Part shown: one piece after another, positions 2,425 to 7,600 of the stretch
How positions within the stretch are numbered: position 1 is the first letter of the stretch
How the letters are laid out: each line of letters starts with the position of its first letter
DNA from: Actinomycetota bacterium
GTDB taxonomy: Bacteria > Actinomycetota > Nitriliruptoria > Nitriliruptorales > Nitriliruptoraceae
Direction of reading: 5' to 3'
DNA: 64,000 bases
Assembly (NCBI GenBank): GCA_019348135.1
Contig: JAHWJY010000001.1
Location: forward strand, 17,973 to 81,972
Notes under the pieces: model-generated
What the model was told of the DNA's origin: nothing
The model's database searches: none
The model's input: the letters and a program-made list of their open reading frames with translations, nothing else
Program-made: the position numbers and the translations under genes

Positions 2425-3618
2425 GTGACCGACCGGTACGACGTGATCGTGGTGGGCGCCGGGATCCTCGGACTGGCCACCGCGTGGACCCTCCTGGGCG
2501 ACCGGCCCGGGTCGCGGGTGGCGGTCGTCGACAAGGAGCACCGCGTCGCGGCGCACCAGTCGTCGCACAACTCGGGCGTGATCCACGCCGGCGTGTACTA
2601 CGCCCCGGGGTCCGCGAAGGCCCGCCTGTGTCGGGCCGGGAAGTCGCAGCTGGAGGAGTTCTGCGCCTCCCGCGGCATCCCCGTGCTCCACAACGGCAAG
2701 GTCATCGTCGCCGTCGACGAGGCCGAGCTCCCCGGCCTCGCCGAGCTGGCGCGGCGCGCGGCCCGGAACGAGGTGGAAGGGCTGCGCGAGCTCGACGCCG
2801 CCGACGTGCGGAGGCTCGAGCCGAACGTCCGGGCGCTCCGGGGGCTGCACTCCCCACGGACGGGCGTCGTCGACTTCCGGCTCGTCTGCCGCGTCCTCGC
2901 GTCCGAGATCCGCGAGCGGGGCGGCGAGCTCCACCTCGGACGGGCGGTCGAAGCGATCGAGGAACGGCCGGGTGAGGTGGTGGTCGGCACCGCTCGCGGG
3001 GAGCTCATGGCGGGCCGCGTGGTCACGTGCGCCGGGCTGCAGTCGGACCGTGTCGCCGCGATGACCGGCGACGCCGGCGACGAGCGGATCGTGCCGTTCC
3101 GGGGCAGCTGGTACGTGCTGCGCCGGCCGGAGCTCGTCAACGGCAACGTCTACCCCGTCCCGGATCCGCGCCTGCCCTTCCTCGGCGTGCACCTCACCCC
3201 GCGCATCGACGGGTCGGTGTGGGTCGGTCCGAACGCGGTGCTCTCGCCGGCGCGGGAGGGCTACCGGCGCGGCACCGTCGACGTCCGCGACCTCGCCGAC
3301 ACGCTGCGGTTCGGTGGCTTCTGGCGCCTCGCGGGCCGGTACGCCGCCAGCGGTGCCCGCGAGCTGGTCGAGGACCGTTCCCGTCACCTCTACGCCCGCG
3401 CCGTGCAGCGCTACGTCCCCGACGTCTCCGCCGCCGACCTCGCCGCCGGCCCCACCGGCATCCGGGCACAGTCGGTCGCGGCCGACGGGTCGATGGTCGA
3501 GGACTTCTCCATCGGCGGGTCGGGGCGCGTGCTGCACGTCCGCAACGCCCCGTCCCCGGCCGCCACGAGCAGCCTCGCGATCGCCCGCGACCTCGTGGAC
3601 CGTCTCCCGGACCGATGA
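2425..3618 (+). CDS. lhgO: L-2-hydroxyglutarate oxidase (FAD-dependent)
   Basis: GTG at 2425 gives VTDRYDVIVVGAGILG (Rossmann FAD motif). HQSSHNSGVIHAGVYY and NAPSPAATSSLAIA are LhgO/YgaF-like. The start could also be 2365. Confidence 0.8.
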   Translation: MTDRYDVIVVGAGILGLATAWTLLGDRPGSRVAVVDKEHRVAAHQSSHNSGVIHAGVYYAPGSAKARLCRAGKSQLEEFCASRGIPVLHNGKVIVAVDEAELPGLAELARRAARNEVEGLRELDAADVRRLEPNVRALRGLHSPRTGVVDFRLVCRVLASEIRERGGELHLGRAVEAIEERPGEVVVGTARGELMAGRVVTCAGLQSDRVAAMTGDAGDERIVPFRGSWYVLRRPELVNGNVYPVPDPRLPFLGVHLTPRIDGSVWVGPNAVLSPAREGYRRGTVDVRDLADTLRFGGFWRLAGRYAASGARELVEDRSRHLYARAVQRYVPDVSAADLAAGPTGIRAQSVAADGSMVEDFSIGGSGRVLHVRNAPSPAATSSLAIARDLVDRLPDR

Positions 3619-3687
3619 CCGTGGCGGCCACGACGTGCCGCCGTACGGTCGGACCGAACGGGGAGCCACCGATACGAGGAGCCAGCG

Positions 3688-4170
3688 ATGGGCGAGGTCG
3701 TCTACCGGTCCGAGACCTCGATCGTGCGCGACCGCGGGCCGCTGCGGAGCGCCACCGTCCCCGGCGCTGCGGAGCCCGTGCTGTTCGGGGTCCACGGGGC
3801 CATCGCCGAGCACTACGGGGTGTCGCCGGACGTCTACGAGCCGCGCGCATCGACGATCGACTACGTCGTCGCCGCGGCCGGCGGCTGACTGACCGGCACC
3901 TTCGGGGGCGCGCTCGAGGCGCGCGGTATCCCCGCCGGGGACGGTCGTCTCCGGGGACACACCAGCGGCGAGATCGAGACCGAGGGCAGGACCCTGATCA
4001 TCAAGCGCATCGCCGTGCGCTACGAGCTGACCGTGGACGCCGACGTCGACCGTGCGGTCATCGAGCGGGTCCACGGCTTCCACGCCGAGAAATGCCCGGT
4101 CGCCCGCAGCATCGCCGGGGCCATCGACGTCTCCACGTCCTACGACCTCGTCGACGCCACGGAGACGTAG
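3688..4170 (+). CDS. OsmC/Ohr-family peroxiredoxin-like protein interrupted by an in-frame TGA (3886-3888) at the catalytic Cys position; candidate selenoprotein, or a pseudogene
   Basis: GAGGAG RBS then ATG at 3688. The ORF track stops at 3888, but the same frame continues: ...DYVVAAAGG[TGA]LTGTFGGALEARG...HAEKCPVARS... to TAG at 4168-4170. The combined 160 aa has the OsmC layout: first active-site Cys replaced by TGA, second Cys in EKCPV. Confidence 0.6.
3903..3934 (+). promoter_or_regulatory. SECIS-like hairpin 15 nt downstream of the in-frame TGA
   Basis: CGGGG-GCGCGC-UCGAG-GCGCGC-(GGUAU)-CCCCG: a 5 bp lower stem, a 6 bp upper stem, a 5-nt G-containing apical loop at 3914-3918 (26-30 nt after the UGA) and a 3' bulge. 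Confidence 0.35.
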
Positions 4171-4245: not shown

Positions 4246-4608
4246 ATGCCCGCCGCCCCCGCCCCCGTCCTGGCCGCCCTCGCCCTCGCCGGCGCGCTCG
4301 TCGGCGTCGGCGTGTCGACGTCCGGTGCGCCCTCCGAGCCGACCGTGACTCCCGTGTCGGCCGAGCTCCGGGAGCGTCCCCACGCCACGCAGGACGGCGC
4401 CACGCAGGACGGCGCCACGCAGGCCGGTGCCGCGGAGGACGTCGCGAGCATCCCGATCGCGTGCGGTGGCTACGACGAGCACGGCGAGGTCGTCACCGAG
4501 GAGGCCACCCGGATCGACCGCGCCCCGGTCGACGCCGCCGGCGTCCCACGGATCCCGGCCGTCTGCGGCGGCTACACGGCCGACGGCACGTTCATCGGCG
4601 ACGACTGA
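4246..4608 (+). CDS. small secreted hypothetical protein
   Basis: Signal-peptide-like N-terminus (APVLAALALAGALVGVGVS), an ATQDG-ATQDG-ATQAG repeat, and a duplicated IPxxCGGY(D/T)xxG motif. Confidence 0.55.
   Translation: MPAAPAPVLAALALAGALVGVGVSTSGAPSEPTVTPVSAELRERPHATQDGATQDGATQAGAAEDVASIPIACGGYDEHGEVVTEEATRIDRAPVDAAGVPRIPAVCGGYTADGTFIGDD
4384..4428 (+). repeat. 15-bp tandem repeat x3 (gccacgcaggacggc; third copy has 2 mismatches) inside the secreted-protein gene
   Basis: Read directly from the sequence. It is in frame and encodes ATQDG/ATQDG/ATQAG. Confidence 0.9.
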
Positions 4609-4624
4609 TCCTCACCGGCCACTA

Positions 4625-4641
4625 GCGTCGGGACCCGACGC
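4625..4641 (+). terminator. GC-rich hairpin after the secreted-protein gene (7 bp stem, 3 nt loop), nested in a longer CTCACCG...CGGTGAG inverted repeat
   Basis: GCGTCGG-gac-CCGACGC lies 17 nt after the stop at 4608. There is no U-tract, which is common in high-GC actinobacteria. Confidence 0.4.
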
Positions 4642-4661
4642 GCGGTGAGGAGGACGAGACG

Positions 4662-7600
4662 GTGACCGACACCGGCACGCCCGCCGCCGGGGTGGACCTC
4701 GACGCCGCCGCGCTGGCGCTCGCCCTGCGGACGCGGACCACCGCCGACGTCCGCTTCGACGCCGGCTCCCGCCACCTCTACGCGACCGACGCCTCGAACT
4801 ACCGGCACGTCCCGATCGGCGTCGTCGCCCCGCGGACCACGGCCGACCTGATCGAGGTCGTGCGGGTCTGCACCGAGCACGGCGCCCCGATCACGACGCG
4901 GGGCGCCGGCACGAGCCTCGCCGGCCAGACCGCCAACGTCGCGGTGATCGTCGACTGCTCGCGCCACCTCGACCGCATCCTCGAGCTCGATCCCGTCGCG
5001 CGGACGGCCCGGGTCGAGCCGGGCGTCGTCCTCGACGACCTCCGGAACGCGGCCGGGCGTCACGGGCTCACCTTCGGTCCGGACCCGTCGACGCACGACC
5101 GCTGCACCCTGGGCGGGATGATCGGGAACAACGCCTGCGGGGTGCACTCGATCAGCGCCGGCCGGACCGTCGACAACGTGCTGGAGATGGATGTCCTCCT
5201 CGGCGACGGCACGCGCATGACCGTGGGGCGACGGTCGCTCGCCGACGTCGCCGCGCTCGCCCGGGAGCCGGGACGGGTCGGCGAGATCCACCGCGGGCTC
5301 CTCGACCTCCGCGCCCGCTACGGCGACCTCGTGCGGGCGCGGTTCCCCGACATCCCGCGACGGGTCTCGGGCTACAACCTCGACGAGCTGCTCCACGACG
5401 ACGCGATCGACACGGCCCGGGCGCTCGTGGGGACAGAGGGCACCTGCGCGGTGGTGCTCGAGGCCACGCTGCGGCTCGTGCCGAGCCCACCCGTGCGCAC
5501 GATGGTCGTGCTCGGCTACGACGACCTGTTCCGCGCCGGCGACGACGTCCCCCGGCTGCTGGCCGCGGGTCCCCTCGGGCTCGAGGGGATCGACGACCAG
5601 GTGGTCGCCGGTGCCCAGGCCCGCGGCGCGTCCCGTGGTGCGGACCTCCTCCCCCCGGGGCGGGGATGGCTGATGGCGGAGTTCGGCGGCGACGACCGCG
5701 CGGCGGCCACGGCCTCCGCCGAGCGCTTCGTCGCGTCGCTCGACGCCGACGGGCCCACCCCCGTCATCCTGCACGAACCCGGCGACCAGCGGGCCGTCTG
5801 GGAGCTGCGGTCCTCGGGGCTCGGCGCGGTCACGTACGTGCCGGGCCGGCGACCGAAGTGGCCGGGCTGGGAGGACGCCGCCGTCCCGCCGGCCCGGACC
5901 GGCGACTACCTCCGCGACCTGCACGCCCTGCTCGACGAGTTCGGCCTCGAGGCGGCGGTCTACGGCCACTTCGGGGACGGCTGCGTGCACACCAAGATCA
6001 GCTTCGACCACACCACCCCCGAGGGCATCGCCACGTTCCGCCGCTTCGTGGAGCGGGCGGCCGACCTCGTGCTCGCCCTCGGCGGGTCCGTGTCCGGTGA
6101 GCACGGCGACGGCCAGGCCCGAGCCGAGCTGTACGAGCGCATGTTCGGGCCCGAGCTCGTGGAGGCCTTCCGCGGGTTCAAGGCGCTGTGGGATCCGGCC
6201 GGACTGCTGAACCCGGGCCGGATCGTCGATCCGCTGCCCCTCGACGCGTCCCTGCGGATGGCGGACCGGCGACGGATGTGGTCGCCGGCCACGTTCTTCA
6301 CGTTCCCGGACGACGCCGGCGACCTCGGCAACGCGGCCGCCCGTTGCGTCGGCGTCGGCGCGTGCCGGCGCGACCACGGCACCGGGACGATGTGCCCGAG
6401 CTGGATGGCCACCCACGAGGAACAGCACTCCACGCGCGGTCGGGCACGGCTGCTGTTCGAGATGCTGCAGCCGGACACCGAGCTCGACGGCTGGCGCGAC
6501 GAGGCGGTCGCGGACGCGCTCGACCTGTGCCTGTCGTGCAAGGGCTGCGTCGACGAGTGCCCCGTGGACGTCGACATGGCGACCTACAAGGCCGAGTTCA
6601 ACGCCCACCACTGGCACCGGCGCGTCCGACCTGCGGCCCACTACAGCCTCGGGCTCATCCGGTGGTGGTCCGCCGCCGCGACCCGGTCGCCGCGCGTGAC
6701 GAACGCGCTCCTGCGATCGCCGCTGGCCATCCCGCTGAAGCGGCTCGCCGGCGTCACCACGGAGCGGCCGGTGCCGGCGTTCGCGGAGGAGTCGCTCACC
6801 ACCTGGTTCCGCCGGCGCGGCGGGACGCACGGGACGGGCGACGAGGTGCTGCTCCTGCCCGACACGTTCACGGACCGCCTCGATCCCACGGCGGGACGTG
6901 CCGCGGTCGAGCTGCTCGAGCACCTCGGCCACCGCGTCGTGCTGCCGGAGCGGCCCGTGTGCTGCGGACGGCCGCTCTACGACGTCGGGATGCTGGCCAC
7001 GGCGAGGCGTCAGCTCACGACGCTGGTGGGCACGCTCCTACCCCACGTCCGCCGCGGGGTCCCGATCGTCGGGCTGGAGCCGTCCTGCGTGGCCGCCCTC
7101 CGGGACGAGCTCCCGAACCTCCTCGGCGTCCGCGGACCTGCCGGCGAGGTCGCCGGGGCGTCGCTGACGCTCGCCGAGTTCCTGGTCGACGTCGCCGACT
7201 GGTCCCCCCCGAGGATCGACCGCGACGCGGTGGTCCACGGCCACTGCCACCACAAGGCCGTGATGGGGATGACCGCCGACGCACGGCTGCTCGACGCGAC
7301 CGGGCTGCGCTGGCGGGAGCTCGACGCCGGCTGCTGCGGCCTCGCCGGGTCCTTCGGCTTCGAGGCCGGCGAGAAGGCGGCGTTGTCGGTCGCGATCGGC
7401 GAGGACCGTCTCCTCCCCGCCGTCCGCGCCGCCGACCCCGGCACGCTGCTCCTGGTCGACGGCTTCTCGTGCCGGACCCAGATCGCGCACCTCCACGGCG
7501 ACCGCTCGCCGATCCACCTCGCGGAGCTGCTGCTCGCGGCGGTGCGCGGCGAGGAGCCGGGCGACCGGTCGCCGGCGGGCGGGTCGGACGATGGGTTGGC

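Follow-up and report, generated by a model that had tools for sequence, protein, structure and literature searches.

The OsmC-type gene and its surroundings

The window, i.e. the whole stretch of 64,000 nucleotides that was analysed, contains a predicted gene of the OsmC type whose reading frame is interrupted by one TGA (Table 1). ORF finding with translation table 11 yields only positions 3688–3888, corresponding to 66 amino acids and terminated by the TGA at 3886–3888, and gene callers divide the region 3688–4170 into products of 66 and 93 amino acids, the latter of which is found as a separate protein (P0009) in a public protein collection. The first-pass annotation, made from the letters of the DNA, had described the same truncated ORF and had noted that its frame stays open to 4170. 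This was confirmed: the frame 3688–4170 (+) is a single one of 160 codons, with the TGA at 3886–3888 as its sole in-frame TGA and no second stop before the TAG at 4168–4170. The joined product reads ...VVAAAGG[U]LTGTFGGAL... and ...EKCPVARS.... The second conserved cysteine that the annotation had located in the EKCPV motif is indeed intact and corresponds to C136.

Table 1 Features of the OsmC-type locus, with positions counted from the first nucleotide of the window
Feature	Position	Strand	Remarks
Shine-Dalgarno-like GAGGAG	3676–3681	+	7–12 nt 5' of the ATG at 3688; direct sequence reading
OsmC-fold selenoprotein CDS (predicted)	3688–4170	+	160 residues; ATG at 3688, Sec codon 67, TAG at 4168–4170
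In-frame TGA, predicted selenocysteine U67	3886–3888	+	OsmC/Ohr peroxidatic-Cys position; TGA/TGT column
Full hairpin	3903–3934	+	Core plus outer 5-bp stem CGGGG/CCCCG; outer stem partly conserved across species
Hairpin core GCGCGCU-CGA-GGCGCGC	3908–3924	+	Positions 23–39 from the U of UGA; conserved
Cys136 codon TGC, presumed resolving cysteine (EKCPVARS)	4093–4095	+	C136 invariant in 121/121 homologues

The local gene order is gamma-glutamyltranspeptidase (GGT), FAD-dependent oxidase, OsmC gene, a small ORF with a signal peptide, and FAD/Fe-S oxidase. This order, from the GGT to the FAD/Fe-S oxidase gene, is common only to a close relative (locus L018). A neighbourhood conserved across phyla was not found, the largest true neighbour cluster comprising six of 82 loci, and a "glutamate-salvage cluster", considered as a functional hint, was dropped because the synteny is limited to L018. 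The small ORF (4246–4608, +) codes for 120 amino acids, starts with a region resembling a signal peptide (MPAAPAPVLAALALAGALVGVG...), contains a short repeat of ATQDG and could be assigned to no family; at the corresponding position, L018 has an ORF of 102 amino acids.

Codon 67 among relatives and constraint on the downstream part

Two scans of one-genome-per-species collections retrieved about 175 loci, from which duplicates were then removed. In the deduplicated set, the U67 column is occupied by TGA in 145 distinct genes and by TGT in seven, with TGG and other codons at zero; two further TGT loci were detected with a looser pattern, giving about nine in total. Carriers of the TGA form belong to the Actinomycetota, Chloroflexota, Acidobacteriota, Desulfobacterota, NC10, Myxococcota, Gemmatimonadota, Nitrospirota and other lineages, and include the cultured isolates Haloechinothrix halophila YIM 93223 and H. 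aidingensis. The orthologue of H. halophila YIM 93223 is 70% identical to the window protein and has both the TGA and the hairpin; the Sec peptide predicted for it is ...AAG-U-LAGTFGGALEAR. The orthologue L018, encoded in the metagenome-assembled genome (MAG) GCA_019348115.1 of the same genus (genome G001), is 81% identical to the window protein, carries TGA at the same codon, is likewise split (66 + 90 amino acids) and has the same neighbours. The gene was found in 12 of 20 relatives, with TGA in every one. The presence of the TGA in the same-genus genome, in these relatives and in the 145 genes of many phyla means that it is not a strain-specific lesion.

The alignment also placed the TGA on the conserved Cys column, where the first-pass annotation had expected it: Cys occupies this column in about 19 of the best 120 homologues in the protein database and in the nine genome loci. 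Such an in-frame UGA, conserved among orthologues and aligned with Cys in homologues, characterizes bacterial selenoprotein genes. An error of sequencing or assembly behind a true TGC or TGT codon, conceivable for a MAG of 342 contigs, is a practically negligible explanation, since the TGA recurs at this codon in independent assemblies from the same genus and from over 140 further species, and a hairpin typical of the Sec forms follows it.

In comparison with the same-genus orthologue, dN/dS was 0.38 for codons 11–66 and 0.17 for codons 68–119. Purifying selection acts on the codons past the TGA, and constraint behind the "stop" is no weaker than ahead of it; the downstream decay that would have accompanied a recent lesion is not seen. 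These values also bear on the possibility that the gene is a nonsense-mutated pseudogene, i.e. a former Cys-type OsmC gene with a TGA lesion past which translation no longer proceeds. The stop of the gene callers at 3888 and the failure to find selA and selB in an assembly of 71.6% completeness would suit such a view. However, it is scarcely credible for a frame without frameshift or second stop, whose downstream part shows the low dN/dS and an invariant C136, and whose TGA is found at exactly the same codon in 145 different genes of many phyla.

Where a Sec form has Leu directly 3' of the UGA (136 genes), the codon is invariably CUN, so that the base following the UGA is C. In E. coli, C after UGA is a weak termination context. 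In the Geobacter-type Cys forms, the Leu codon after TGT is UUA or UUG in six out of seven genes, a comparison that is confounded by GC content.

Hairpin downstream of the UGA codon

A hairpin just past the TGA, with the loop UCGAG 26–30 nt after it, had been proposed in the first-pass annotation as a possible SECIS element, and was recovered by RNAfold, which predicted five outer and seven inner pairs (−20 kcal/mol) and placed the loop at 3914–3918. In a numbering in which the U of UGA is position 1, positions 23–29 pair with 39–33. The bacterial SECIS element, as reportedly defined by Zhang and Gladyshev in 2005, is a stem-loop directly past the UGA, with its apical loop about 16–37 nt away and a G in the loop. 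The loop of the candidate hairpin, starting 26 nt past the UGA and containing G, fits this consensus.

Considered alone, the hairpin of the window is unexceptional for GC-rich DNA (z = −1.07 for 38 nt upon dinucleotide shuffling, 28 out of 200 shuffles being equally stable). Shuffling over 65 nt resulted in z = −2.0, and permutation of synonymous codons within the window gene in z = −1.1. For the Sec forms, synonymous-codon permutation gave a mean z of −1.2, with 23% of the sequences individually at or below 5%, which is a moderate shift only. Given the peptide GGALEAR, codon choice in a GC-rich gene leads almost inevitably to the hairpin; the significance of the hairpin derives from the comparison across species, not from the copy in the window.

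In this comparison, the core stem is paired in 94.5% of 714 cells (102 distinct sequences), as against 20–70% after displacement of the 3' partner by one to three columns. The common variation is pair-preserving throughout (G-C/G-U at 23–39, C-G/U-G at 24–38, U-G/U-A at 29–33). Two-sided compensatory changes in the fixed register were found at none of the pairs in the 102 distinct sequences, and a formal covariation test was silent, since the partner of every wobble base is fixed by the amino-acid sequence. The entropy at the third codon position amounts to 0.38–0.89 bit in codons 7–11 (GGC GCG CTG GAR GCG), compared with 1.2–1.9 bit in flanking four-fold codons, and the low synonymous variation of the hairpin codons is also observed in the AT-richer genes of Desulfobacterales. 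The outer pairs 19–46, 20–45 and 21–44 are kept in 73–118 of 145 sequences. At positions 29–33, most sequences have the loop UGGAG; UCGAG occurs in the window and in 13 of the 145. Owing to the palindrome GCGCGC, RNAalifold shifted the consensus of the 145 sequences to a helix of 3 bp, and pairs were counted on the stated register instead; a shuffle control for this counting was uninformative, the partner columns being invariant.

Some sequences reach a hairpin by other routes. The register-breaking variant GGU GCC CUC GAG GCA refolds with the pairs G23-C37, U24-A36, G25-C35, C26-G34 and C27-G33, the variant GCC CUG GAG GCC CGG GGC forms a stem of 13 bp, and a group of Euzebyales/Nitriliruptorales with GCC AGG has a 9-bp hairpin a few bases upstream of the usual place. 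In four MAGs of the latter orders (loci L045, L061, L062 and L081), Arg is encoded by AGG and Ala by GCC, which breaks the usual stem, and the 9-bp hairpin CCUUCGGCG-GUG-CGCUGGAGG is located nearer to the UGA, within the first 40 nt. It is a putative alternative SECIS solution within the family.

The hairpin is associated with the Sec forms, which have a mean of 5.7 of six pairs, as compared with 2.4 of six and no hairpin in the Geobacter-type Cys genes; most Cys forms are without it. A TGT form from a Pyrinomonadaceae MAG (L134, JBJMGP010000060.1) retains the hairpin sequence GGCGCGCTGGAGGCGCGC within 45 nt after the TGT codon, with z = −3.55 upon synonymous permutation. From its sequence, this gene looks like a recent replacement of Sec by Cys with a fossil SECIS element.

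Selenocysteine machinery and probable decoding of the UGA codon

The assembly that contains the window comprises 3.17 Mb in 342 contigs and is 71.6% complete. The search for Sec machinery suggested by the first-pass annotation was successful in part. A tRNA-Sec was identified (Rfam RF01852, 72.8 bits with a gathering score of 47; ARAGORN call SeC(tca)), as was selD (346.5 bits), which has an in-frame TGA of its own at SHGAG-U-ACK. This codon corresponds to Cys17 of E. coli SelD, a position taken by Sec in some bacteria. Since selD carries an in-frame TGA, the organism has at least one other selenoprotein gene. The tRNA-Sec, with 94 nt and the anticodon TCA, is encoded at C127:10459–10550 (−) (locus L010, 1499–1592), and selD at C331:1278–2228 (+) (locus L009), on a contig of only 2964 bases.

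However, selA and selB were not found by the search of the window's own assembly. The genes beside the tRNA-Sec on C127 were considered as candidates and turned out to be a gene for a DUF2254 membrane protein and ORFs without family assignment; a "selB" match on contig C36 (202 bits, covering model positions 1–262 only), about 1.8 kb past an EF-G-like match, was read as EF-Tu. In the same-genus genome G001, selA (500.7 bits) adjoins selB (291.9 bits) on one contig. Of 20 relatives, 16 had a selA match above the cut-off; selA was matched in all ten high-quality genomes and was also present in all five other TGA-form genomes tested, both Haloechinothrix isolates included. The absence of selA and selB from the window's own genome is attributed to incompleteness of the assembly, and is the weakest link in the case for a selenoprotein.

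On NZ_JACCKD010000001.1 of H. aidingensis (L024), the Sec-OsmC gene and selB are located at 3001–3456 and 4335–6113 (−), respectively; the former is convergent to selB (270 bits) at a distance of about 0.9 kb, and selA lies just beyond. As this linkage is not seen in H. halophila, it may be due to chance.

The UGA might also be read as Trp, Cys or Gly instead of Sec, either by a near-cognate tRNA or in a reassigned code. What speaks for it is that "W" is deposited at the U67 column in 96 of the best 120 homologues in the protein database. The DNA of two W-bearing homologues was fetched, and both translate only with TGA=W. This finding, together with the lack of TGG at any locus, identifies the "W" as a gene-caller artefact (use of code 4 for short contigs). 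TGA, moreover, is an ordinary stop in the genome and its lineage, as seen in the upstream gene, which ends with the TGA at 3616–3618, and in L018, the orthologue of the OsmC gene, which itself ends with TGA; reassignment of the code would not account for the pattern. With Cys as the alternative residue of the family, which is a signature of Sec, and with a tRNA-Sec and a Sec-selD in the genome, readthrough with another residue is very unlikely. The deposition of Trp in 96 of the best 120 homologues (P0002–P0121) is in itself a systematic artefact, which masks selenoproteins as "full-length" W proteins.

The proposal of a selenoprotein, as put forward in the first-pass annotation, is supported by the conserved TGA/Cys column, the hairpin, purifying selection, and the presence of tRNA-Sec and Sec-selD. 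On this evidence, which is derived from sequences, we consider it highly probable (roughly 0.9) that 3688–4170 represents one intact gene for a redox enzyme of the OsmC/Ohr fold with 160 residues, the peroxidatic Cys of which is replaced by Sec. The finding is of value mainly for the correction of annotation, as databases routinely divide the gene into two: public records contain a hypothetical protein of 66 amino acids and an "OsmC family protein" of about 90 amino acids, or render the UGA as Trp. A clade-specific model would allow the repair of hundreds of entries, and more selenoproteins would be counted in Actinomycetota and in soil phyla.

OsmC fold, active site and proposed chemistry

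The OsmC/Ohr layout previously ascribed to the joined product was corroborated by profile and fold matches. The Pfam model OsmC (PF02566) scored 44.8 bits (cut-off 27.5) over residues 57–150, a range which spans the TGA. An AlphaFold2 model built with 18 homologues had a mean pLDDT of 88.8 and a pTM of 0.81, and the best matches of this model in a Foldseek search against the PDB were all OsmC/Ohr proteins (TM 0.7–0.8, E = 1e-9 to 1e-7), among them Ta0195, a Burkholderia OsmC-like protein, Ohr and E. coli OsmC. U67 aligns with the Cys of "AAHAGCFSMAL" in Thermus thermophilus OsmC (1UKK) and of "AAGGCSA" in E. coli YhfA, and C136 with the Cys of "EGCPVSRAL" in T. thermophilus OsmC and of "KYCFISRAI" in Ta0195. 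A sequence-profile search of the PDB retrieved Ta0195 only, and only its C-terminal half, so that the placement of U67 required single-sequence phmmer and the fold search. In the known proteins, the aligned Cys pair comprises the peroxidatic and the resolving residue (Cys59/Cys125 of E. coli OsmC, Cys60/Cys124 of Ohr). Both redox positions of OsmC/Ohr, one in the long helix and the other at the start of the C-terminal helix, are matched by U67 and C136.

We infer Sec insertion as well as peroxidase chemistry, substrate and reductant of the window protein from conservation, fold and active-site positions. The UGA at codon 67 would be decoded by Sec-tRNA(Sec) delivered by SelB, and SelB would be recruited by the GC-rich intragenic hairpin 23–39 nt from the U of UGA, which is encoded by the G-A-L-E-A-R peptide. 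Most likely, the selenol of U67 would then attack a hydroperoxide to form a selenenic acid, which Cys136 may resolve to a selenenylsulfide; a thiol donor of the lipoyl or thioredoxin type, as for OsmC/Ohr, could reduce the latter. Among thiol peroxidases, selenoproteins usually have their Sec at the peroxidatic position.

A genuine selenoprotein need not be a hydroperoxide reductase, and the Sec/Cys pair might serve another redox reaction or a transfer of selenium or sulfur. Identities to OsmC, Ohr and YhfA of 11–19%, with weak sequence E-values, would agree with such a role, as would the N-terminal region FGVHGAIAEHY, peculiar to the clade, with the invariant His36 and His42; the clade-invariant residues further include R79 and R127. 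The catalytic Arg/Glu of OsmC/Ohr were not recognisable in the window's clade, and the neighbourhood, which varies across phyla, provides no functional hint. Nevertheless, the clade shares with OsmC/Ohr the entire fold and the positions of the two active-site Cys residues. We regard a function other than that of a peroxidase as unlikely, though worth keeping in mind, and prefer the reading as a Sec-dependent hydroperoxide reductase.

Two further OsmC-like genes without internal stops were noted in the genome (C234:31916–32317 and C293:4313–4696), with weak NF041052 scores of 59.8 and 51.9 bits, respectively. Hence, the genome also possesses Cys-type OsmC paralogues.

Comparison with known OsmC families

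The first-pass annotation had referred to OsmC-like selenoproteins predicted in metagenome surveys. This was correct, although the family described there represents another clade of OsmC proteins. In 2005, Zhang, Fomenko and Gladyshev described an OsmC-like selenoprotein from the Sargasso Sea, with three sequences, assigned to COG1765 and characterized by the motif UxxT (PMC1088965), and the GOS survey of 2008 again reported an OsmC-like selenoprotein, with five sequences (PMC2398784). Reviews list the OsmC-like selenoprotein as a single entry, PF02566 with UxxT (PMC9312934, PMC13188914). The published family and the window protein share the PF02566 fold with Sec at the first active-site Cys in the long helix; both the UxxT family and the window's clade have Cys homologues and a bacterial SECIS just past the UGA, which in the window is the candidate hairpin.

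The differences concern sequence and distribution. The published family is of the COG1765/YhfA type, and its NCBIfam model NF041052, "OsmC-related (seleno)protein", has a cut-off of 95 bits, whereas the window protein (P0001) scores 17.6 bits. A genuine member of this model, L196 (129 bits), likewise has an in-frame TGA and reads GVAT-U-LLT-QT, i.e. UxxT, whereas the motif of the window's clade is GG-U-LTGTFGG and not UxxT. BLASTP of L196 and P0001 revealed no significant similarity (E = 0.05, in the wrong register). The N-terminal region of the window's clade differs from that of the published family as well. Moreover, the clade is mostly found in lineages from soil, sediment and groundwater and in Actinomycetota, whereas the published family is rare, with three to five sequences per marine survey. 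Sec at the first redox Cys of the OsmC fold has thus been known since 2005; the clade of the window is a different one and falls outside the curated models.

Among the close relatives sampled, which belong to at least eight phyla, the ratio of Sec to Cys forms is about 16:1. Whether the clade should be regarded as a distinct OsmC-fold selenoprotein family (GG-U-LTGTFGG...CPVA), which the selenoproteome literature searched does not catalogue separately and which has no curated model, is a matter on which we stop slightly short of even odds. If it holds, the family would rank among the more widespread bacterial selenoproteins that lack annotation, and its own N-terminal His region could mean a substrate or partner unlike those of classical OsmC/Ohr.

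The nearest Cys-containing counterparts belong to the clade itself: "OsmC family proteins" of Flavobacterium/Tenacibaculum, and proteins of Geobacteraceae and Pyrinomonadaceae (P0043), share 47–58% identity over the full length and have the same motifs and C136, but TGT for TGA. Where the Sec forms have A-L-E-A-R, the Geobacter-type genes encode A-L-A-G/V-R with different codons. The characterized proteins OsmC, Ohr and YhfA are only 11–19% identical to the window protein, which also remains far below the cut-off of the NCBIfam OsmC model (TIGR03562; 17.8 versus 85.8 bits). OsmC (E. coli; T. thermophilus, 1UKK/1QWI) and Ohr have the same fold, but the window protein is predicted to have Sec, not Cys, at the peroxidatic site. 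A clade dominated by putative Sec forms, with the cultured carriers H. halophila and H. aidingensis, would offer a natural system to compare selenol with thiol catalysis in the OsmC/Ohr fold.
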